DNA of 36,630 nt from an uncultured bacterium (lineage in GTDB: Bacteria; Hinthialibacterota; Hinthialibacteria; Hinthialibacterales; Hinthialibacteraceae). Positions 19,472-36,048 of this stretch are shown in pieces. How positions within the stretch are numbered: the stretch's first letter is position 1; the number at the start of each line of letters is the position of its first letter. The translations under genes were made by a program, and so were the position numbers. The notes under the pieces are model-generated. The model had not been told where the DNA came from. It was given only the letters and a program-made list of their open reading frames with translations, and did no database searches. Where the stretch lies: assembly GCA_964449065.1 (NCBI GenBank), contig CAYVAZ010000010.1, positions 1-36,630 of the forward strand, given 5' to 3'.

Positions 19472-19543
<72 letters not shown>

Positions 19544-24841: not shown

Positions 24842-25190
24842 GGGGGCGTAATGGGTTCGACGGAAATGGCGTGGCGAATAAGAGCATGCCGGGGAACCGC
24901 CGGCCCCGTAATCAAGGCGGATAAATAATAACTGCAGATTACGAAACTTTACCTCTAGCCGCGTAGTCGGCTAGCGTCACGTTCGGTTCCGCTCTTTCGG
25001 CTGAACAAGTGGCGTCAAACAGATGGAGCTAGCAGGCTCATCTGCCTTCGCTGAGTTTGCGAACCCTTAGAAGGCTGGCTGTCCAGGCGTTGTCTCCGTT
25101 CGCCGGGCAGTGAGATCAATCGGAGACTAAGCATGTAGTGCTTATTGGTTGACCCATTTTCGGACGCGGGTTCAATTCCCGCCGCCTCCA
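24842..25190 (+). ncRNA. ssrA: tmRNA; tag peptide (A)ADYETLPLAA at 24934-24966
   Basis: 5' GGGGGCG...GGTTCGAC and 3' GGACGCGGGTTCAATTCCCGCCGCCTCCA form an Ala-type acceptor stem with G3.U70. The resume codon GCA follows ATAACT and the tag ends LAA-stop. Confidence 0.96.
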
Positions 25191-25350
25191 CTTTCTTTTC
25201 TCTATCGTAAAGCATTTTAAATAAAGAACTTGCAACTTTTTTGCTTTCAACACACTTCATTTGTTGGCGGTATATTGGCGTTTTATTTTGTTCAGTAGTT
25301 TCCACTTTAAACGGATTCAAATAAATTCTGTGTGATTCTTCCATAAAAGG

Positions 25351-25554: not shown

Positions 25555-26319
25555 TCATTGCGGTTTGATTGCTGCAAGTAGATACAAAACCGTTTCAGTC
25601 GAGTAAATCACAAATCCCGCGCAATCCCCCGTGATTGCCCTGATCCTGCGTAAAAAGTAGAACCGGGCAGCGATTGGAATTATAAGAAAGACAACCGGTA
25701 CGATGATCAAATGATCTGGCATGATCATCCCTAAAATGATGATTGTATTGGCCAACCCGGCAAAAAAACACAGCCACCGGTTGGAGAACAATACCGTACG
25801 GTTCATACTTTCGGGTGGGAGTTCATGCTTTTGTGCCAGGGTTAAAAACAATACACCCGCCAACCGTGAAACGGATGCAAACGCAATCAAACTCGTTGCC
25901 GCCGTTGCGGGGCTCATCGCCGTGAGCGCAGCGTATCGTAATACATAAGAAGAAATTAACGCGAATGCTCCATAAGTTCCAATACAACTATCCCGCATAA
26001 TAGCAAGAATTTTTTGCGGAGTATTTCCTCCCATACCATCGGCGGTATCCGCAAGTGCATCTTCATGAAAGGCTCCCGTAATCCAACCATAAACAAAAAG
26101 CGTTATGGCTACCGAAACCGTATACGGAAAGAAAAGCGTTGAATAGCTTAAAACCAAGGCGGCAATTCCACCTAAGAGCGCCCCAACGATTGGAAAAAAT
26201 ATTCCCATACGGTAAAGCGCATGTCCCGTATATCCCCACTTGGGAATCGGGATCCACGATAAAAAGGATACGGTCGTTAAAACCAATTGAAGGATGTAAA
26301 TTAATCGTTTTATTTTCAT
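25555..26319 (-). CDS. cobS: Cobalamin (5'-phosphate) synthase
   Basis: Polytopic membrane protein with FPIVGALLG, TGAFHEDALADTADG, IMRDSCIGTYG and ITGDCAG. Confidence 0.92.
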   Translation of the reverse strand: MKIKRLIYILQLVLTTVSFLSWIPIPKWGYTGHALYRMGIFFPIVGALLGGIAALVLSYSTLFFPYTVSVAITLFVYGWITGAFHEDALADTADGMGGNTPQKILAIMRDSCIGTYGAFALISSYVLRYAALTAMSPATAATSLIAFASVSRLAGVLFLTLAQKHELPPESMNRTVLFSNRWLCFFAGLANTIIILGMIMPDHLIIVPVVFLIIPIAARFYFLRRIRAITGDCAGFVIYSTETVLYLLAAIKPQ

Positions 26320-26321
26320 GA

Positions 26322-27338
26322 TTAACGGCTCACATTCGCCGATTTGAAGGTAGCCATTTCGTTAAAAACCGCCGCGGCCGCGTCTAAAATAGGGAGCGCT
26401 ATGAGGGCGCCGCTCGCTTCTCCCAACCGCAGGTTCAAATCAAGCAAAGGGTCTAAATCTAAATGATCCAGAACCAATCGGTGTCCACGTTCAGCGGAAA
26501 TATGCGCCGCAATGAGATTTTGCTGCACAGAAGGTTCCATTTCACAGGCGATTAACGCCGCGGCAGAGACAATAAAACCATCCAATACTATGGGGATGGT
26601 GTGTTTTGATGCTTCTAACATGGCGCCTACCATTGCCGCAATTTCAAATCCCCCCAAACAAGATAACACGGTTTCCACACCAGTAATTTGATGACTATGC
26701 AATGCGTTTTCAATGATGCACTTTTTGTGATTCCATCCTTCATGATTCAATCCGGTCCCGCAGCCCGTGATGTTTTCAACCGGTATATTCAAAACCGCCG
26801 CGCTAATGGCAGCGGCGGAGGTGGTGTTGCCGATCCCCATTTCGCCCAAAAGAATCAACTTGGTTCCTTCTTCAACCTCTTCAGAAACGGTTTGCCTACC
26901 GACCGCAATACCTTGCCGGCATTCATCCAGGGTCATTGCAGGTTGGTTGGTAAAGTTTCGCGTCCCGTTTCGAACAAGTTTTCGCTCCACTCCAGGCATC
27001 TCTTCATTCTCCGGCAACATGCTGCCCACATCGATAATCCGTAATTTGGCTTGATGCAGTTTGGATAACACACTCACAGCGGCTCCACCATTTGCCATGT
27101 TTTTCATCATTTCTATAGTCACCGGTTGGGGAAACGCGCTTACACCTTCTTCGCAAACGCCATGATCACCGGCAAAAATGATTACACTTCGGGGCTTGGT
27201 TTGCGGCTGTTTTGTCTTTTGGATGCCGCATAGCCGCGCGGCGGTTTCTTCAACACGTCCCAAACTTCTTGGCGGTTTGGTCAGTTGGTCAAGATGCCGC
27301 CATGCGGCATCGATATCGTGTTGGTTATTCGTTAGCAT
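26322..27338 (-). CDS. cobT: Nicotinate-nucleotide--dimethylbenzimidazole phosphoribosyltransferase
   Basis: LTKPPRSLGRVE, FAGDHGV, GEMGIGNTT, LDGFI and LRLGEASGA. Confidence 0.96.
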   Translation of the reverse strand: MLTNNQHDIDAAWRHLDQLTKPPRSLGRVEETAARLCGIQKTKQPQTKPRSVIIFAGDHGVCEEGVSAFPQPVTIEMMKNMANGGAAVSVLSKLHQAKLRIIDVGSMLPENEEMPGVERKLVRNGTRNFTNQPAMTLDECRQGIAVGRQTVSEEVEEGTKLILLGEMGIGNTTSAAAISAAVLNIPVENITGCGTGLNHEGWNHKKCIIENALHSHQITGVETVLSCLGGFEIAAMVGAMLEASKHTIPIVLDGFIVSAAALIACEMEPSVQQNLIAAHISAERGHRLVLDHLDLDPLLDLNLRLGEASGALIALPILDAAAAVFNEMATFKSANVSR

Positions 27339-27864
27339 TTGGTGTTGTCCCCTTTACCGCTAGCGGTATTCCCGCCACAAACAAAATCACGTTTTCACAT
27401 ACCGCCGCGATACTTTGATTGATTTTGCCTAATAGATCGCGGTATTGCCTGCCGGATTCATATTCAGGATGAACTCCCATCCCTACCTCATTGGTTACGA
27501 TGACAATCTCTGTCTTAATCCTTTCGATCTTATTGATTAAGGGTATTACATGGTTTTGGATAACTTGATCTTGAGTCGGGGCCTCATTCATAATCAGGGC
27601 AGTCCACACAGTGAGGCAATCAATCACGATGATATCGGCTGTCTTATGAGCGGATTGCAATGCCTTTACGATATCTTTTCCTGCTTCAATCGTTCTCCAA
27701 CGATCTCCCCGCTCTTGTTGATGGCGATTAATGCGTTCTTTCATATCCTCATCGATGGCGCTGGCTGTCGCAATAAACACTTTGCGGTTAAACCGCTGCG
27801 AGTACCGAACCGCCCAAGCACTTTTTCCGCTGCGGACCCCTCCGATGACTAATGTGCTGGACAT
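27325..27864 (-). CDS. cobU: Bifunctional adenosylcobinamide kinase/guanylyltransferase (CobU/CobP)
   Basis: GGVRSGKS, FIATA, RINRHQQER, IDCLTVW, TNEVGMG and YRDLLG. Start set at ATG 27864 behind GGAGG. Confidence 0.96.
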   Translation of the reverse strand: MSSTLVIGGVRSGKSAWAVRYSQRFNRKVFIATASAIDEDMKERINRHQQERGDRWRTIEAGKDIVKALQSAHKTADIIVIDCLTVWTALIMNEAPTQDQVIQNHVIPLINKIERIKTEIVIVTNEVGMGVHPEYESGRQYRDLLGKINQSIAAVCENVILFVAGIPLAVKGTTPNANE

Positions 27865-28622
27865 GTGTTTTCCTCCATCTGCCATACATTCATCATCCGG
27901 TTCTGAACCGTCTTCATCGGGAGATCAAATCCTTCTGCAATCGTAGTGGGATTGATAACTTCATGGGGATCACCTTGTTTGATGATTTGTCCCTGTTTGA
28001 TCATTGCCGCCCGGTCGGATATGCGCAGCGCGCCATTTAAATCATGCGTCACGTTGATGATGGTTTTCCCCTCATTTCGCAGCCGGATCAAAATGTCTTC
28101 AAACAATATTTGATGTTTCAAGTCCAAATAGCGGGCAGGTTCATCCAACAGAATAATAGGGGTGTTTTGCATAATGACCTGTGCCAGCAAAACCCGCTGA
28201 AATTCCCCCCCGCTTAGCGTACCGACAACCCTGTGGCGAAATTCATCCATCCGGCAAATCAAAAGGGCATCACGAAGACGGTTTTGCAATTCAATCTTTG
28301 AGACCATTCCTACCCACGGAAAATGCCCCATGAGAATGTATTCTTCCACTGTACATTGCGTGTTTGTAGGAATCGTTTGCGGCAAATAAGCGATCTGCCT
28401 TGCAAGCTGTTTGAGCGTCATGGATTGGATATCTTGGTTTTGAAGAGTAATGCAGCCGGATTGAATTGGCACAAAACGCAAAACAGCGCGCAACATTGTG
28501 CTTTTCCCTGCGCCGTTTTGTCCGACAATCGAAACCAAGTTGCCCGCATCGGCTTGCAAAGAAACATTTTGAATGATGCGGTGATTCTTGATGGTCACGG
28601 ATAGATTTTGGATGCGCAACAT
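27849..28622 (-). CDS. btuD: Cobalamin/iron-chelate ABC transporter ATPase
   Basis: GQNGAGKS, LSGGEFQRV, LLDEP and THDLN. Substrate inferred from the B12 operon context. Confidence 0.85.
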   Translation of the reverse strand: MLRIQNLSVTIKNHRIIQNVSLQADAGNLVSIVGQNGAGKSTMLRAVLRFVPIQSGCITLQNQDIQSMTLKQLARQIAYLPQTIPTNTQCTVEEYILMGHFPWVGMVSKIELQNRLRDALLICRMDEFRHRVVGTLSGGEFQRVLLAQVIMQNTPIILLDEPARYLDLKHQILFEDILIRLRNEGKTIINVTHDLNGALRISDRAAMIKQGQIIKQGDPHEVINPTTIAEGFDLPMKTVQNRMMNVWQMEENTCPAH

Positions 28623-28628
28623 AGTGGG

Positions 28629-29606
28629 TCATGCCTCTTTCCGAACAAACATCCATAAAAATGTCACACTGCCGATCAATCCGGTGATGACTCCCAACGG
28701 CAATTCAATAGGGGCAAACGCATTCTTCGCGATTAAGTCACAAAACAGCACGAAGGAGGCTCCACCCAAAATACACAAGGGAAACAAGACCCTGTGCTGC
28801 GTTCCGGCGGGGTAGCGTATGATGTGCGGAATCATTAATCCCACAAAACCGACGATGCCTACCGCAGCAACACATGCACCTGTAACCATGCTGGATATGA
28901 AAAATACTTCCCGGCGTAAATGGCCCGCATTTACACCCAATGATGCCGTTTTTTCTTCTCCCATGCTTAATAAATCCAATTCTTTCGCTTTGCGGAACAT
29001 CAACAAACAACCGGCAATAACAACCACGCAGGCGGTTGCCAGCATTGAGGTGGGAGCAGAACCCAAATCGCCCAACAACCACATCAATGCACCATGAGCG
29101 CGGTTGCTTGATGAAAGTGAAATGAGCATCATGAGCAGCGATTGAAAAAAATATCCCAACATTATACCGCACAAAATAAGCGCCGATTGAGAAAACCGGG
29201 TGTGCTGGGATAACACAAACACCAGGGCCGTCACAATCACGGCGCCGACCATGGCACTCACGGAGACCCATATCCCCGCCGTCACTCCGGAAACAATCGC
29301 CAATACGGCTCCAAAGCCCGCACCACCAGAAATGCCCAGCGTAAATGGTTCCGCCAATGGATTGCGAAAAAGCCCTTGCAGCGCCAAACCGCAAGCAGCC
29401 AGTCCCATCCCCGTTATGACTGCATAGACCGCGCGCGGCAGCCGCAACTTCCACAAAATCGCCCCGGAGGGAGACGACGGATTCAACAATCCATGCATGA
29501 CTTCATTCCATGACAAGTCGGCCGGTCCCGAAACCACATGCGCAACAAAGACAGCGATCAACATGAACAACAGGCCTGTAAACAAAAACCAAAACGTGTT
29601 CTTCAT
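28629..29606 (-). CDS. btuC: Cobalamin ABC transporter permease (FecCD/BtuC family)
   Basis: LRLPRA, QGLFRNPLAEPFTLGISGGA, GFVGLMIPH and ELPLGVIT. Confidence 0.88.
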   Translation of the reverse strand: MKNTFWFLFTGLLFMLIAVFVAHVVSGPADLSWNEVMHGLLNPSSPSGAILWKLRLPRAVYAVITGMGLAACGLALQGLFRNPLAEPFTLGISGGAGFGAVLAIVSGVTAGIWVSVSAMVGAVIVTALVFVLSQHTRFSQSALILCGIMLGYFFQSLLMMLISLSSSNRAHGALMWLLGDLGSAPTSMLATACVVVIAGCLLMFRKAKELDLLSMGEEKTASLGVNAGHLRREVFFISSMVTGACVAAVGIVGFVGLMIPHIIRYPAGTQHRVLFPLCILGGASFVLFCDLIAKNAFAPIELPLGVITGLIGSVTFLWMFVRKEA

Positions 29607-30472
29607 GGCAGCAAGTCCTGAAGCGGCGGCATGGTTGGAATCTCAACCGTGGGATGAAGAATGGCGGCAAAATACTCCACCGCGTTGACAAACGCCGTTA
29701 AACTGGGCTGCGACAATTCCGAAGCATCGGTTTGGTGAACGATTGCATCTTGCAATTGCGGGTACTCACGGTATTTGTAAACACGGTCGTCATCAAACAG
29801 GGAATGGGTTAAGATAAATATGGCATCGGGTTTTTGGGCGATGACAGATTCCATTGAGGTTTTAGGATACGCTATTAGGGCATCCGCAAAGATGTTGTTC
29901 CCTCCCGCCATATCTACAACATGATGGATAAACCCCAGTCTGGAAACGGTGGTCAATGGCTGGTGCCAAACTTCGACAAACACACGTTTTCGTCCTTGGT
30001 CTTTTACTAATCTTTGGATGTTACGCAGATGGTTTGTAACACGCTTAATTAGCGATTTTGCACTCGCGCTACGGTTCGTGATTTCAGCGACTTTTTCGAC
30101 ATCCCGAATGATATCTTCTAATGATTGAGATGGCCCCAAACGCACCAAGGGCAATCCTACCGATTCGATCTTATCCAACGTCTCCACCCGGTTTGATTCT
30201 ACATTGCCTAACACCAATGTTGGTTTCAGCGTGGTAATGAACTCGATATTGGGGTGCGTTATGGTTCCGGTCACAACAGCCTTGGATGCGTTTTTAGGCA
30301 AAACACAATATTTTGTGATTCCCAATAAGAATTCGCCCAACCCTAGATCGCGGACAATCGCTGTGTTGGATGGCGCCAACGATACTATGCGGATCGCTTC
30401 TGAATTTGCAGTTGCACTCAAAGCGCACACCAACCAAATAAGCATCCATTGCCATAAATAATTTCGTTTCAT
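29603..30472 (-). CDS. btuF: Periplasmic cobalamin-binding protein
   Basis: Signal peptide, RIVSLAPSNT, GITKYC, PNIEFI, AGGNNIF and ESVIAQKPD. The 2nd Cys of the E. coli-type disulfide is not obvious. Confidence 0.85.
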   Translation of the reverse strand: MKRNYLWQWMLIWLVCALSATANSEAIRIVSLAPSNTAIVRDLGLGEFLLGITKYCVLPKNASKAVVTGTITHPNIEFITTLKPTLVLGNVESNRVETLDKIESVGLPLVRLGPSQSLEDIIRDVEKVAEITNRSASAKSLIKRVTNHLRNIQRLVKDQGRKRVFVEVWHQPLTTVSRLGFIHHVVDMAGGNNIFADALIAYPKTSMESVIAQKPDAIFILTHSLFDDDRVYKYREYPQLQDAIVHQTDASELSQPSLTAFVNAVEYFAAILHPTVEIPTMPPLQDLLP

Positions 30473-30481
30473 TTCGAATAC

Positions 30482-31168
30482 CTACTTTTCTTTCTTTTGC
30501 TCCCATCGATTTACATAGCAAAGGTCATGAAGTGGAATCTTTTGTCTCCACCCTTTTTGTTCTAACTCCGGTATGGAGAAAAAAACTTTGGGATATCCCA
30601 CACATAAGTACGCAATCAATTGAATCGATTTTGGAATATGGAGAATTGATTTCACAATATCGGGTTCCAAAATACTGACCCAGCCGACACCGATGTTTTC
30701 TGCCCGTGCCGCCAACCACAAATTTTGGATCGCGCAACATACACTAAAAAGTCCGGTTTCGGGCATGGTATTTCTGCCCAGCACATGGGGGCCGCCCCGT
30801 TTTGGATTATAGGTAACCACAATGTTGAGCGGAGACTCTACTATCCCTTCTAACTTCAATGAATCATACAATGCTCGTTTCTCTTCCGAATAATGCTGTG
30901 CGGCAAGTGAATTTTGCTGCTGAACGTGTTCAGCGATTTTTTCGCGCATGCATTGATCCTGAATCAAGATAAAGTTCCAAGGCTGCATGTACCCCACAGA
31001 GGGCGCCGCATGAGCGGCGTTGAGAATGCGAAGCAGCACTTCTTCCGGGATACATTCAGGACGAAACTGCCGCACATCTCTTCTGTGATGAATAACGTCA
31101 TAAAGTGACTGTCTTTCATCTTTACAAAATCGTTTATGGGTTTGCAATGTGGGTTTCTTGTTCATCAT
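30482..31168 (-). CDS. bluB: 5,6-dimethylbenzimidazole synthase
   Basis: RRDVRQF, APSVGYMQPWNF, LKLEGI, HVLGR and AIQNLWLAARAENIGVGWVSI. Confidence 0.93.
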   Translation of the reverse strand: MMNKKPTLQTHKRFCKDERQSLYDVIHHRRDVRQFRPECIPEEVLLRILNAAHAAPSVGYMQPWNFILIQDQCMREKIAEHVQQQNSLAAQHYSEEKRALYDSLKLEGIVESPLNIVVTYNPKRGGPHVLGRNTMPETGLFSVCCAIQNLWLAARAENIGVGWVSILEPDIVKSILHIPKSIQLIAYLCVGYPKVFFSIPELEQKGWRQKIPLHDLCYVNRWEQKKEK

Positions 31169-32657
31169 TTATTTCCGCTAAAATTGTGTTCATGTTGATA
31201 TGCATTTGTATTGTGGTTGCCAAGAGTTCATATACATCCTTCTCCGGTGTTGAAACGGTTTCTGTCATGCCAAAATGCTGTGCGATATGGTTTCGAAAAT
31301 GGATGGAATCGAAAATACCGTGAACGTACGTTCCCCATACCAACCCGTCTTCAGAAATCATCCCTTCTTTTCTAAAGCAAGATACCGACTGTTCTTGTTG
31401 AATTTCAATCAATGGCTGCGCAACCGATGAAACGGTTCGTCCGCAATGAATTTCATACCCACGAATTTCTTTCCCGTTTGGAATGAAGGTTCCGATTATG
31501 TTTTGGGTAATCTTTTTCGGTAAAAGGGTGGTCTCGGCATTCAACAACCCCATCCCTTCGCACGAGCCTATATTGGATTCCACACCGTATGGGTCTTGTA
31601 CAACTGTGCCCAGCATTTGATAGCCGCCGCAAATTCCCAAAATTAACTTTCCTTTGGTGTTTTGATGAATAAGATAGGAATCCATACCTTTGTTCTTGAG
31701 TTGAACCAAATCTTCTATTACATTCTTTGAACCCGGTAAAATATAAAACGCTTTTTCTTCATCGGATGGTTCATACAACAAATCGACATCAAAGCGGGGG
31801 TCGGCAATCAGTGCTTCCACATCGGTGCTGTTTGAAATATGCGGTGTCATGATGACACCAACACGGATGACGTTGCGCTCCCGTTTTTGACCGGCTTGTA
31901 TTCTTCTAGCTTGAAACGAAGCCCCATCTTCATCGGGCAGGTGATGGTTTTCGATATAGGGAAGTACACCCAATACCGGAATGCCTGAACGTTCTTCCAA
32001 AATCCGGACACCGTCTTCGAACAATTCAGGCGTACCCCGAAATTTATTCACAACCAGACCAATGATTCTCGACCGTGCTTCATGGCTCAATAAATCAAGC
32101 GATCCTAAAAGCGACGCGAACACACCGCCACGTTCGATATCTCCGATTAAGATAACCTTTGCGTTTGCATAGTCTGTAATCCATTCATTGGCTAAATCGC
32201 GGTGACGAAGGTTGAGTTCCGCGCACCCGCCTGCGCCTTCGATCAATACCACATCATGCCGCGAAGCCAAACGGTCATACGAATCCGCAATCAACCGTTT
32301 GAATTCATCCAACCGTGTGATTCCGAAATCGGAGCCAATGGAGCCTTTTACTTTGCCTTGCAGCACGACTTGAGATTGCTTCTCGCCGGTTGGTTTTAAC
32401 AGCAAAGGATTGAGATCATTGGTTACGGCAACACGGCAGGCTTCTGCCTGGCACGCTTGCGCCCGTCCAATCTCTCCCCCTTCTTCTGTCACGGCAGAGT
32501 TATTCGACATGTTCTGCGCTTTAAATGGAGCGACACTATATCCTCGGTTTGAGAGAACCCTCCCCAATCCAGCGCAGAACAAACTCTTGCCGACATGTGA
32601 AGACGTTCCCCATACGCTAATTGCTGTTGCTCGATGTGAATTCTGTTGATGCTTCAT
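31134..32657 (-). CDS. cobQ: Cobyric acid synthase (CobQ/CbiP)
   Basis: GTSSHVGKS, PFKAQNMSNNS, EGAGG, DIERGGVFA, GICGGYQMLG, GYEIH and GTYVHG. Confidence 0.96.
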   Translation of the reverse strand: MKHQQNSHRATAISVWGTSSHVGKSLFCAGLGRVLSNRGYSVAPFKAQNMSNNSAVTEEGGEIGRAQACQAEACRVAVTNDLNPLLLKPTGEKQSQVVLQGKVKGSIGSDFGITRLDEFKRLIADSYDRLASRHDVVLIEGAGGCAELNLRHRDLANEWITDYANAKVILIGDIERGGVFASLLGSLDLLSHEARSRIIGLVVNKFRGTPELFEDGVRILEERSGIPVLGVLPYIENHHLPDEDGASFQARRIQAGQKRERNVIRVGVIMTPHISNSTDVEALIADPRFDVDLLYEPSDEEKAFYILPGSKNVIEDLVQLKNKGMDSYLIHQNTKGKLILGICGGYQMLGTVVQDPYGVESNIGSCEGMGLLNAETTLLPKKITQNIIGTFIPNGKEIRGYEIHCGRTVSSVAQPLIEIQQEQSVSCFRKEGMISEDGLVWGTYVHGIFDSIHFRNHIAQHFGMTETVSTPEKDVYELLATTIQMHINMNTILAEINDEQETHIANP

Positions 32658-33244
32658 TAAAACTCAATTCCCCTTTGGGCTTTGATTCCTTGCTTGAATG
32701 GATGCTTAACCATCTGGATTTCCGAGACCAAATCCGCGAATTCTTTTAATTCTTCGGGGGCATCTCTGCCGGTGCAGATCACATGCATCCAAGACGGACG
32801 GTTTTGCAAAGTCTCCAACACGGGATCAACCGGTAGATAGTTGTAGGCAAATACATAGTTGATCTCATCCAGGATGATCAAATCATGCTGGGCGCGGATT
32901 ATCTTTTCTTCCGCGAATTTCCAGATTGATTCTGTGGTTTGAATATCTTGTTCGGGATTTTTTGTATCCCAGGTGAAACCATCCCCTAATGCATGCAGTT
33001 CGATATCCAAGGGCAAAGCGTCGCAAATCCGTTGTTCTCCGGTGGTCCATTTGCCTTTGATAAATTGAATGATGCACACCTTCCAGTTCCAACCCAGCGA
33101 ACGAAACGCCACGCCCAAGGCGGCGGATGATTTTCCTTTGCCGTTTCCGGTATTCACCAGCACCAGCCCCCGCCGCCGGGAGCGGGGAGGCTGTGCTTCA
33201 CAGGTCATTAATTCATTTAGCGTTAAACCGTTTTCTTTATTCAT
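32657..33244 (-). CDS. cobO: Cob(I)yrinic acid a,c-diamide adenosyltransferase (CobO/BtuR)
   Basis: NTGNGKGKSSAALG, QFIKG, GDGFTW, ILDEI, TGR and KHPF...AQRGIEF. Start reassigned to ATG 33244, overlapping the upstream stop. Confidence 0.95.
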   Translation of the reverse strand: MNKENGLTLNELMTCEAQPPRSRRRGLVLVNTGNGKGKSSAALGVAFRSLGWNWKVCIIQFIKGKWTTGEQRICDALPLDIELHALGDGFTWDTKNPEQDIQTTESIWKFAEEKIIRAQHDLIILDEINYVFAYNYLPVDPVLETLQNRPSWMHVICTGRDAPEELKEFADLVSEIQMVKHPFKQGIKAQRGIEF

Positions 33245-34595
33245 ATTGATTCCAATTCTGGATGGAGGATTCGATCTGCGAAGAAAGCATATACAGTTCC
33301 ACATTCCCATCCCGTTCGCTTTGCCACACCACAACCACTTCACCGCTGGGGGCAATATCGATCGCAGGCTGGCCGTCAACCGTAAGGATTTTTTCCGTCA
33401 AACGTAGTTCATCTGAAAGTTGTTGGGTTGCGGGATCATAAACACGCAGGAACAAATCGCCTTCGGTATCGCGAAAATCGGACCACACCACATATACCAT
33501 GCCGTTCGGTGCAATCGCGATATCCGCACGCTCGACAACATCCGGTGAAGCAAAGCCGGTGATGGCGATGGGAGACTCAAAGGAGTCAGCACCAGGCCCC
33601 TTTTTGGCGATATGGATGTTGTGGTTGACCCCATCGGTCCGGTCGGTCCAAACAATCCAAATATTGTCATCCTGATCTGCATAGATTTTTGGCGGATCAC
33701 CAAAAGCCCCGCCGTTCGGGCTGATTTCAACACTGCTGCTCAGCGTTCTGGATGGTGGAGAGGCAACCACGCCATAACTCAAATTGGCATCCGCATCGGT
33801 AAAACCTTTGGTCCACACCGTTTGCAATCTTCCTTGACTGTCATAGACAAAATCCGGAATCACAACTCCAAGAGTTAAATGAGGGTCAGGGGCTGGATTA
33901 CCATCCAGGTTTGCGCCTTGCACCAAACGCTCTTCAAGCGGTTCGTTCGAATCAAAAAATCCACTCTCATCAGAAAACGTGACAAGCATATCGGGTCCGG
34001 AATCTTGAAAAAAATCATACCAACCAATTGCCAATTGATTGTTCGAAAAACCGCGAATTTTGGGGCGCCATTGGTTGCCGTCATGCGATGTGATCTGCTG
34101 TTCTTTATCTTCAAACTGTCCGTTTGGCAGTAAGCGGCGGTAAAATACATCCACATTGTTTGTGCCTAAGCTGCTGGTGCTGTTGCGGTAATCATGCCAG
34201 ACAAAATGCACGCTGCCATCCGGCGCCGGGTACAACGATGGATTGCCTCCGCTGTTAAGGGGTACACGGTCACCCGTTTCGCTGCGAAACGGCAACGGTT
34301 CGCTCCATACTCCATCGCGGTGCACTTGATACAGCATGAACCCGGGTAGGCCGCTGCCGGTTCCTTCTTCATTCCGTTCGGTGTAAACCAGATGCAATGC
34401 ACCGTCATCACCAAACATCAAGCTCCCGTGTGTGTTGCGTGACAACACGGTATCAGTTTCTGATACGGTCAGCCTTACAGGATCAGTGAACGTGGGTAGT
34501 TCCGGCTGCGTGTATGCCAGAGAACCGCCAAGCAGCATTCCCATGCATAAACAGGTCATCTTTCGTGTGGATGTTCTTTGTAGGTCTTGTTTCAT
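33237..34595 (-). CDS. Secreted seven-repeat beta-propeller protein, first gene under the cobalamin riboswitch
   Basis: Start at ATG 34595 behind GAAAGGGAG (452 aa). Signal-peptide-like N-terminus, seven P-x-[IL]-x(4)-G-x-x-x-x-[VG]-[WY] repeats and C-terminal tail SSIQNWNQYE. Confidence 0.8.
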   Translation of the reverse strand: MKQDLQRTSTRKMTCLCMGMLLGGSLAYTQPELPTFTDPVRLTVSETDTVLSRNTHGSLMFGDDGALHLVYTERNEEGTGSGLPGFMLYQVHRDGVWSEPLPFRSETGDRVPLNSGGNPSLYPAPDGSVHFVWHDYRNSTSSLGTNNVDVFYRRLLPNGQFEDKEQQITSHDGNQWRPKIRGFSNNQLAIGWYDFFQDSGPDMLVTFSDESGFFDSNEPLEERLVQGANLDGNPAPDPHLTLGVVIPDFVYDSQGRLQTVWTKGFTDADANLSYGVVASPPSRTLSSSVEISPNGGAFGDPPKIYADQDDNIWIVWTDRTDGVNHNIHIAKKGPGADSFESPIAITGFASPDVVERADIAIAPNGMVYVVWSDFRDTEGDLFLRVYDPATQQLSDELRLTEKILTVDGQPAIDIAPSGEVVVVWQSERDGNVELYMLSSQIESSIQNWNQYE

Positions 34596-34874
34596 GTGAT
34601 ACTCCCTTTCTTGAATGTATTGATTATCCATAACCAGAGATGGAATGGACAATAAACGGAACCATTCGAAGAAACGGGAATAGCAACAATCCGCGATGGA
34701 AGGCGGGCAAACGTTTCGCCTGAATCGGTTGCATAGTACGTAGTAAGAAGCCATTGCGTTTCCTCGAACACAATGAACCATTAGCCAATTACAGAGCGGG
34801 TATATTTGAACGAATAGGGATAGATCTTCGTCCGTCAGCCTTCTCCGCGGTCGGCGTGTCGGTTCATGAGATTG

Positions 34875-35057
34875 ATGAAAGGCAGGTCTCCTGGCTTCTG
34901 GGCTTTGTTATTCCTACTTCCCCGCCTTCTCGCTCAAAACTAAGCAATGGCATTCGGGGTTTCGTTCCCAGTTACAGTGGCGGGACCGCGCCGGACTCAC
35001 ACCGGCTTCCCATTTTAAGTGCTTCGCTCAACAGGCATTGAACGACACACCTTTCAT
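34875..35057 (-). promoter_or_regulatory. Cobalamin (B12) riboswitch
   Basis: Minus strand: P1 ATGAAAGG/CCTTTCAT, then AAATGGGAAGCCGGTGTGAGTCCGGCGCGGTCCCGCCACTGT, GAGAAGG, and B12 box AGCCAGGAGACCTGCC. Confidence 0.96.
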
Positions 35058-36048
35058 GTGGAGAGGATAATAACAATACATACCCAATCTTGTCAACTAG
35101 AAAAGATGAAAATATGAAAATAATGAAAACAGTCATTCCAACGAAGAGGACTGATGAGATAAACATCAGTTTCCATGCTTTGGGGATATCATCCGGTTGG
35201 GCTTGTTTTCCCTGTTCATGGAGAACCGCTTTATGACTTATCACACCTTGATAGGTACTCGTTCCTCCTAAGCGAATATCCAACGCGCCCGCGAATGCGG
35301 CTTCCGCATGACCCGCATTGGGGCTGTTGTGTTTTAGCCGTTCTTTCCATCCCACCTGCCATGATTTATTTCCATTCAATTTGCCAAACACCGCGGCAAG
35401 CGGGATGATCAAGATGGACAACCGTGCCGGGATGAAATTGCATACATCATCCAACCGCGCGGATGCCCAGCCAAATTGTTTGTATCTCTCATTCTTATAT
35501 CCAATCATCGAATCCAATGTGCTGACCGCTTTAAACGCCATCGCGAGAGGCGCGCCGCCAATGGCGGCAAACACCAATGGAGAAACGATTCCATCAACGG
35601 TGCCTTCTGCCACAGTCTCTACTGCCGCGCGGGAAATTTCCGGCTCATCCAATTTATGAGTATCCCGTCCAACAACCAACGAAAGGCTTTGACGCGCGTG
35701 AAACATATCTTTCCGCCGCAGGGATTGATAAACCGGTTTGGTTTCATCATACAAACCGCGAATAGATATGCACTGATAGATCAGAAATACTTCTGCCATC
35801 CATGCCCATTCATGATGAATTGAGTTTGCCATCCATATAACAAACCATGTAAGCCAATATGCAAGCCAAGGGAGAAGAACAGCCAATCCAATACCGCTTA
35901 TCCACAATGGAACGGGTGCGTTTCGAAACGACGCTTCATACCGTTTAATAAACCACCCCATCCAACGCACGGGATGGGGCAGCCATTTCGGATCACCGAA
36001 TAGGAGATCAAGCAAAAAAGCGGTAACCAGGGTGGATATAGAAATCAT
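34972..36048 (-). CDS. cbiB: Adenosylcobinamide-phosphate synthase CbiB, with C-terminal extension into the riboswitch
   Basis: DLLFGDP...HPVRWMG, VVGRDT, ETVAEGTVDG, STLDSMIGY, ARLDDVCNFIPARL and SPNAGHAEAAFAGAL. Confidence 0.95.
   Translation of the reverse strand: MISISTLVTAFLLDLLFGDPKWLPHPVRWMGWFIKRYEASFRNAPVPLWISGIGLAVLLPWLAYWLTWFVIWMANSIHHEWAWMAEVFLIYQCISIRGLYDETKPVYQSLRRKDMFHARQSLSLVVGRDTHKLDEPEISRAAVETVAEGTVDGIVSPLVFAAIGGAPLAMAFKAVSTLDSMIGYKNERYKQFGWASARLDDVCNFIPARLSILIIPLAAVFGKLNGNKSWQVGWKERLKHNSPNAGHAEAAFAGALDIRLGGTSTYQGVISHKAVLHEQGKQAQPDDIPKAWKLMFISSVLFVGMTVFIIFIFSSFLVDKIGYVLLLSSPHERCVVQCLLSEALKMGSRCESGAVPPL
35067..35096 (-). promoter_or_regulatory. Internal sigma70-type promoter inside the cbiB 3' end, driving the riboswitch transcript
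   Basis: Minus strand TTGACA-18 nt-TATTAT with extended -10 TGn. Predicted start ~35060, immediately before riboswitch P1. Confidence 0.75.

Follow-up and report, generated by a model that had tools for sequence, protein, structure and literature searches.

What does an exported protein do when its gene stands behind a cobalamin riboswitch and is followed in the same operon by genes for corrinoid import and salvage? The question is raised by the 36,630-nt stretch of DNA analysed here (the window), which is the whole contig C10 (CAYVAZ010000010.1) of source genome G000, an uncultured member of the phylum Candidatus (Ca.) Hinthialibacterota (OLB16). The gene (33237..34595, minus strand, with ATG at 34595 and TAA at 33237) encodes a protein of 452 aa, P0001, which belongs to clade A of an unnamed BNR-like family and is modelled as a seven-bladed beta-propeller. 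On balance, we lean towards a corrinoid-capture role for P0001, which would be exported, probably displayed on the surface, and part of a B12-repressed uptake module that is linked to a pilin and typical of the phylum. What is observed, and what this reading starts from, is the place of the gene behind the riboswitch, the make-up of the operon, the class of fold and the partner proteins.

Position behind cobalamin riboswitches

Upstream of the propeller gene lies a cobalamin riboswitch aptamer that covers the full RF00174 model (34864..35069, minus strand; 106.1 bits, E 8.6e-26). The initial annotation of the window had described a 452-aa exported protein behind such a riboswitch, and this is borne out by the open reading frame (ORF) at 34595-33237, by the RF00174 match and by the single N-terminal hydrophobic stretch of the protein, which has no later membrane segment. 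A 514-aa frame given by the ORF finder, with its start inside the riboswitch leader, was rejected because homologues begin at the position of 34595.

We surveyed 35 Ca. Hinthialibacterota genomes, scoring about 50 riboswitch candidates in each. Cobalamin riboswitches numbered 77 in 34 of the genomes (one more, truncated by a contig end, stands outside this count), and the propeller family was present in 33/35 genomes at E<=1e-15. Of the 50 family match rows, two came from a single fragmented copy at the start of a contig and were set aside, and 48 members were recovered as ORFs. For thirty-two of these, in 26 genomes, a cobalamin riboswitch on the same strand precedes the gene by no more than 2.6 kb; the chance of such adjacency is about 5e-4 per gene, and kin are not independent. 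The other members are divided between operons with an hmuS-type chelatase gene (8/48) and neither setting (8/48). Recurrence of homologues behind cobalamin riboswitches was the check that the initial annotation had proposed for itself, and it is what we found; together with a repeat family that differs in sequence from that of BtuG, it makes a capture role plausible.

The riboswitch link occurs in three separate groups of the family tree (A, C and D). In this quick IQ-TREE reconstruction, A+B and C have 100% support and the deeper forks between clades lack resolution, so that no order of events is claimed. Profile comparison joins A/B with D-type sequences over their full length (probability 100). 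A protein motif was used to select eight metagenome loci; six of them have a riboswitch 1.3-1.6 kb upstream, two of the six being near duplicates, and the other two, which are one arrangement seen twice, have a riboswitch and a pilin gene downstream. Scans of named genomes gave no full-length relative by propeller patterns and, among the matches listed, generic prepilin N-termini only by pilin alignment; one homologue in a representative library is labelled Ca. Sumerlaeia. At one locus of the survey (L083, G011:C6), a cobalamin riboswitch precedes nrdD/nrdG-like genes, which is an ordinary arrangement for a B12-independent ribonucleotide reductase.

The propeller had also been taken as the first ORF after the riboswitch. 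This is so in G000; in its three closest relatives a pilin-like gene comes first, and the order is riboswitch, pilin, propeller and then cob/btu genes. The 268-nt leader of the P0001 gene holds no pilin remnant, and a deletion of the pilin at the G000 locus would be read from the relatives only.

The leader suggests how the operon may be controlled. A sigma-70-like promoter, TTGACA-18-TATTAT with a TG (35067..35096, minus strand), ends at the 5' end of the aptamer; it has 11/12 consensus matches, and with three such sites in the region against 2.6 expected, its position is its sole support. Next to the start codon, a predicted hairpin (34599..34684, minus strand) forms a candidate translational expression platform, in which the ribosome binding site (RBS, 34602-34610) is paired with an anti-RBS (34671-34680). 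Base pairing probabilities of the predicted RBS are 0.84-1.0, the platform has a z of -2.7 against shuffles, and the leader contains a single weak terminator candidate. The folding model, with the RBS held in this long hairpin, suggests control of the operon at the level of translation. The frame of the upstream gene cbiB (358 aa, against 317-338 in relatives) reads through the promoter and about 100 nt of the aptamer (34972-35069).

Fold class, export and comparison with BtuG

Seven repeat cores, which had been noticed in P0001 beforehand, are present at residues 64, 126, 185, 254, 309, 364 and 417. The AlphaFold2 model, built from a 7-row alignment, is all-beta (pLDDT 78.8, pTM 0.83), and its top fold matches in Foldseek and VIA-align are seven-bladed propellers. 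These are BNR/Asp-box-like proteins, namely CylK (7RON; Z 33.9, root mean square deviation (rmsd) 3.1 over 344 residues), PL42 (7ESK) and GH145 (5MUM/5MUK) enzymes, and the Photorhabdus PLL/PHL lectins, with Z of 28-34 and rmsd of 2.7-3.6 over 310-360 residues. Identities are 9-14% throughout, and the context of P0001 is one of corrinoids rather than glycans.

In sequence, P0001 matches no Pfam family, two NCBIfam models match it weakly, and the ESM Atlas offers BNR-type leads only, all under 0.9. A 66-row family profile searched against all Protein Data Bank (PDB) sequences gave one match at E<=1, to a xylanase (E 0.0056). BNR_4 (PF15892) is matched by 37/66 family rows at E<=0.01, with a best value of 5.6e-9, and the one recorded BNR_4 score, 25 bits, is under the cut-off of 27.3. 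D135, R137, W192 and D194 are invariant in the family, and R53, H68, H134, D135, D194 and D300 are well conserved. These conserved residues, the BNR_4 matches and the top folds among PL42/GH145-type enzymes and CylK would fit an extracytoplasmic BNR-type enzyme whose task is to trim corrinoids, or release them from their carriers, ahead of import. We regard such an enzyme as very improbable, because identities are so low, the xylanase at E 0.0056 is the best that the family profile finds among solved structures, and a number of the conserved positions are part of the repeat itself.

P0001 shares several features with BtuG of Bacteroides thetaiotaomicron, as described in the accessible part of a review (PMC13616437): both are seven-bladed exported propellers, both are acidic, and both belong to a B12-riboswitch operon with btuFCD. 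A count of net charge only makes all 66 aligned family members acidic, with an excess of 36 negative charges in P0001. With a BNR-like sequence family and a seven-bladed model, P0001 thus falls in the fold class of BtuG but not in its sequence family; neither Pfam nor the 66-row profile against the PDB detects homology, in agreement with the earlier view that the repeat family is a different one. In three fold searches the 50 best rows were taken up by other seven-bladed propellers, with no BtuG listed. BtuG is a lipoprotein lid on BtuB, with BtuJ, BtuH and BtuK acting in a relay (same source), whereas P0001 has no lipobox and ends in a C-terminal tag instead, and the partner in its regulon is a pilin-like protein rather than a BtuB. 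Control by a cobalamin riboswitch is matched by position, here and in 32/48 members. The accessible text of the review mentions neither pilin, pilus nor transcobalamin. Of the initial proposal of a functional BtuG analogue, a plausible capture role stands; the analogy is incomplete, with no TonB-receptor match behind 77 riboswitches and a pilin-like protein as partner. P0001 may work like BtuG, but it is not a BtuG, having neither sequence homology to it nor a lipobox nor a cognate BtuB encoded alongside.

Export is predicted by a Sec signal peptide without lipobox at residues 1-29 (34509..34595, minus strand), whose hydrophobic stretch spans residues 13-22 and whose cleavage before Q30 is suggested by homologues. 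The absence of a clear lipobox, noted earlier, holds for P0001; a lipobox-like motif occurs in 1/66 family rows. The C-terminal tag, S-x-I-x-x-W-x-x-Y (33240..33269, minus strand), closes a protein that ends in SSIQNWNQYE. A W lies within the last ten residues in 64/66 family rows, and W448 is kept in 98%; in some homologues, the Sumerlaeia one among them, a dockerin-like domain stands where the tag would be. Among 5191 ORFs of G000, 40 end in the wider pattern S/T-x-V/I-x-x-W-x-x-Y/F/H, whereas internal cut points give it 0.48 times on average; a crude signal-peptide test is passed by 35/40 tagged ORFs compared with 880/2158 others. In all, about 40-60 ORFs of the genome carry a tag of this kind. 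No NCBIfam model covers the tag in the 11 proteins scanned. Tagged genes stand beside pilin genes in 13/64 cases, against 188/2686, a weak sign that such a neighbourhood is general. The tag may be a sorting or docking signal. Another tagged exported protein of G000, of 556 aa and without a Pfam match (G000:C75:8910-10577), lies 35 nt behind the NikR-type box with the highest score in that genome.

Pilin-like and transcobalamin-fold partners

Within 3.5 kb behind the 77 riboswitches, a pilin-like gene occurs at 33, a propeller at 32, a gene for a tandem protein of 278 aa at 24 and btuFCD at 14; another exported protein, in genome family f6, is found at 7. At least one module gene (pilin, propeller or second exported protein) accompanies 61/77 riboswitches, btuFCD only accompanies 7, and 9 have none of these. 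Among the nine, one has a pilin missed by the ORF filter, three lie at contig ends and one precedes nrdD.

The pilin forms a distinct subfamily with a conserved head. Searching with up to 80 candidates scored per genome, we found 44 copies in 34/35 genomes: 33 behind riboswitches, 8 in hmuS-type chelatase operons and 3 at contig edges. The subfamily has a class III signal peptide, G|FTLIE with E5; TIGR02532 matches 35/37 rows and a GspG-like N-terminus is seen in 37/37. Pilin-like ORFs number 114 in G000, nearly identical at the N-terminus and variable in the head; only 2 of them are of the B12-type subfamily. The genome also has 7 secretin matches and 11 matches to ATPases of type II secretion systems or pili. 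Its pilin has a riboswitch of its own on C11, where an unusually long (296 nt) cobalamin riboswitch precedes a lone B12-type pilin (G000:C11:7566-8603). The Akkermansia MUL2 pilin locus likewise ties a pilin-like protein to substrate acquisition in a diderm; as far as the accessible text goes (PMC13174399), it differs in that its substrates are glycans, its role is read as attachment, and neither cofactor uptake nor riboswitch control is involved. The available part of a paper on the phylum (PMC9324843) lists a cobalamin ATP-binding cassette (ABC) transporter and Tad pili and is silent on the present module.

The tandem protein is riboswitch-controlled, exported and composed of two domains (G000:C387:1283-2146; pLDDT 89). 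Its fold matches 3U7Z, transcobalamin, intrinsic factor and haptocorrin with Z of 14.2-13.5, the next unrelated row having Z 7.6, and it superposes on the B12-binding beta-domain of the latter three with Z of 14.1-13.5 and rmsd of 1.6-2.1 over 97-101 residues; Foldseek agrees, and the ESM Atlas gives weak SCO2322/DUF4430 leads. This likeness belongs to the tandem protein and not to the propeller. Unlike the known beta-domains, it has two domains in tandem, 13-18% identity to them, no Pfam DUF4430 match and the tag of this lineage at its end.

Judged by its modelled fold, this second riboswitch-controlled protein could be the real binder. The propeller would then be a scaffold or adaptor between the transcobalamin-fold binder and either the pilin or the export machinery, and would not itself bind corrinoid. 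A known B12-binding fold is indeed already in the module, usually encoded directly upstream of clade C propellers, and the structural neighbours of the propeller give no B12 lead. We nevertheless judge a scaffold unlikely, as clade A and clade B operons have no transcobalamin-fold binder, clade D propellers are paired with unrelated upstream proteins, and in the clade B operons described below the propeller is the sole tagged exported candidate. Other unannotated exported proteins are encoded between riboswitch and clade D propeller (L049:6855-8012, L050:10171-12492, L205:4755-5906 and L200:786-2129); standing in the usual place of the transcobalamin-fold gene, they are further candidate corrinoid binders.

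How corrinoids would cross the outer membrane was considered through TonB receptors. Twelve receptor queries gave no match in the ORFs up to 7 kb downstream of the 77 riboswitches, some of these stretches stopping at contig ends. No genome of the 35 passes the cut-off of the BtuB model TIGR01779, a weak test in that E. coli alone passed among the controls, and 11/35 have weak matches to this model. G000 has six TonB receptors, all on other contigs. Alternatively, the propeller might bind corrinoids in the medium or within the periplasm, their passage across the outer membrane being left to another channel or to a TonB receptor encoded elsewhere, and the pilin might be a co-regulated adhesin for contact with B12 producers. 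Besides the six receptors and the weak BtuB matches, this is favoured by 20/41 recovered pilins having no propeller within 1.3 kb. The lack of TonB-receptor matches behind the riboswitches argues against it, as does a pilin subfamily almost confined to riboswitch and hmuS-type loci, and the shared tag would suggest sorting past the periplasm; we consider this arrangement distinctly unlikely.

For the preferred reading of P0001 as a capture protein, the corrinoid binding, surface location and pilin role that we infer can be put as a sequence of steps. At low B12 the operon would be translated, and P0001 would cross the inner membrane by Sec. Its C-terminal tag may direct it to the cell surface or the pilin machinery, where one acidic face of P0001 would bind a corrinoid. 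A filament containing the pilin, together with a secretin, would move the cargo into the periplasm, BtuFCD would import it, and CobO, CobQ, CbiB/CobD, CobU, CobT, CobS and BluB would finish the corrinoid.

The window operon, clade B and the ligand

The propeller stop codon (33237-33239) overlaps the cobO ATG (33244) by 8 nt, as the initial annotation had stated, and the genes that follow on the minus strand belong to the families that it had listed, with btuF, btuC and btuD as "-like". They are the corrinoid adenosyltransferase gene cobO/btuR (32657..33244; PF02572 and TIGR00708 above cut-off), cobQ for cobyric acid synthase (31134..32657; TIGR00313 above cut-off), bluB for dimethylbenzimidazole synthase (30482..31168; TIGR02476 above cut-off), and genes for a BtuF-like periplasmic binding protein (29603..30472; PF01497, with BtuF as top NCBIfam model, under cut-off), a BtuC-like ABC permease (28629..29606; PF01032, with BtuC as top NCBIfam model, under cut-off) and a BtuD-like ABC ATPase (27849..28622; PF00005). 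Then come cobU for cobinamide kinase/guanylyltransferase (27325..27885; PF02283, and NF004469 above cut-off), cobT for the phosphoribosyltransferase (26322..27338; TIGR03160 above cut-off) and cobS for cobalamin-phosphate synthase (25555..26319; PF02654). Upstream of the propeller, on the same strand, are cbiB (34972..36048; TIGR00380 above cut-off) and a cobD-like aminotransferase/decarboxylase gene truncated by the contig end (36045..36629; top NCBIfam model TIGR01140, from a partial protein). Just past cobS, on the opposite strand, is a tmRNA (24842-25193, plus strand), and a tRNA gene lies at 19472-19543 (minus strand).

CbiC/CobH is absent from all genomes (0/35), and the corrin ring is therefore not made; MetH is present in G000. 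cobQ occurs in 5/35 genomes, four with an intact clade A propeller in the same operon and the fifth, G012, with a truncated clade A remnant between pilin and cobO (G012:C50, L052, about 35060-35230). Since clade A never occurs without the salvage operon, the data suggest an incomplete corrinoid as the likely ligand of the clade; this would be cobinamide or cobyrinate, bound instead of intact cobalamin or in addition to it.

Another kind of operon holds the sister clade B, whose identity to P0001 is 41-44%. All 8 loci consist of pilin, propeller, MotA/ExbB, DUF2149 and an HmuS/CobN-like chelatase, and they hold the sole CobN-like genes of the phylum (8/35 genomes); the nearest solved relative of the chelatase is HmuS, with 458 bits against 396 for CobN. 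These operons resemble the hmuYRSTUV/btuS operons of Bacteroidota in their MotA/ExbB (HmuU-type), DUF2149 (HmuV-type) and HmuS-like components. In Porphyromonas gingivalis, according to the accessible text of two papers (PMC11681262, PMC12583661), the MotA/ExbB-like HmuU and the DUF2149 protein HmuV are encoded behind hmuY and the TonB receptor gene hmuR. Clade B differs in having pilin and propeller (8/8) in place of the hemophore HmuY and the receptor HmuR. Thus, in the riboswitch and in the chelatase setting, pilin and propeller twice occupy the place that surface binder and TonB receptor have in Bacteroidota.

Clade B operons differ from hmu operons also in their upstream box, which matches the NikR consensus. 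A 27-nt palindrome is present in all 8 clade B promoters, with NikR-type boxes in 8/8, and the G004 site is exactly GTGTTAC-N13-GTAACAC, the NikR consensus of delta-proteobacteria (PMC545781, accessible text). In G000, the clade B operon (G000:C31:5059-12121) has a propeller paralogue 43% identical to P0001 and a perfect NikR-type palindrome upstream, and no riboswitch was found at this locus even at E<=1. A second, similar palindrome lies inside the 5' end of that propeller gene. A scan of G000 with a NikR matrix gave nine sites at >=14, four of them at >=24, and one NikR-type site precedes a DUF4198 gene and a divergent CobW-type GTPase gene. nikR is present in 33/35 genomes, and at three loci of family f6 (L047, L050 and L114, in G028, G029 and G030) the single nikR gene is convergent with, and adjoins, the clade D propeller.

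These boxes, the identity of 41-44% and the HmuS/CobN-like chelatase would be in line with an A/B clade that scavenges a metal, cobalt or nickel, free or chelated, and not an intact ring. The window operon speaks against it with BtuFCD-like and loop-assembly genes and no chelatase or ring synthesis, and its leader has no NikR-type box (best score -4.2), so we give metal scavenging very little probability. The hmuS-type operons of clade B follow NikR-type boxes and not B12 riboswitches; the ligand may therefore be a ring that lacks the nucleotide loop, and not an intact cobamide. F430 would be a candidate ligand for clade B; the available part of a methanogen genome paper (PMC3087415) proposes CobN-like proteins as nickel chelatases.

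Several points weigh against the capture reading of P0001. Its best structural matches are carbohydrate lyases and hydrolases, lectins and CylK, none of them B12 binders, and the invariant D135, R137, W192 and D194 fall in the W-x-D signature of the repeats and may be structural. The net acidity of the family is a count within its own 66 aligned rows. Eight members have no link to either setting: two are true orphans (G020 C3 and G000 C2), four start <700 nt from a contig end, one is a partial copy, and one has a riboswitch and pilin just downstream. Clade A and cobQ share one operon, so that their co-occurrence is not independent evidence, and the NikR-type boxes of clade B mean that the family is not confined to B12. 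In G000, pilin, transcobalamin-fold gene and propellers are split over four loci. One of its six TonB receptors could carry corrinoids outside riboswitch control, and the BtuB model is insensitive and too strict to prove a lack of BtuB.

A wider model, which we offer tentatively and with more doubt than confidence, is that Hinthialibacterota import metallo-tetrapyrroles without a TonB receptor, through tagged capture proteins that attach to a pilin reserved for them and enter by way of a secretin. Duplication would have given versions of the module with different tasks: C/D, with the transcobalamin-fold partner, for intact cobamides, A for incomplete corrinoids feeding salvage, and B, controlled by NikR, for a tetrapyrrole of nickel (F430, for example) from which the HmuS-like enzyme removes the metal; the tag S-x-V-x-x-W-x-x-Y would be an undescribed sorting signal serving >100 pilins. 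In the literature searched, which was mostly non-subscription and whose supplementary regulon tables could name such genes, we found no published B12-riboswitch pilin/propeller module and no such tag.

To the question of how B12 crosses the outer membrane of diderms that lack a recognisable BtuB, this phylum brings a candidate set that is small and highly conserved: one pilin, one propeller and one transcobalamin-fold protein. Since the module proteins are soluble once the signal is removed, binding can be tested though the organisms are uncultured. If binding is true, P0001 would represent a B12-binding propeller family other than BtuG, possibly selective for cobinamide. With the sister operon under nickel control, the scavenging of nickel tetrapyrroles is likewise open to direct tests. 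If the pilin step is true, it would give type IV filaments a role in cofactor import, which would be categorically new.

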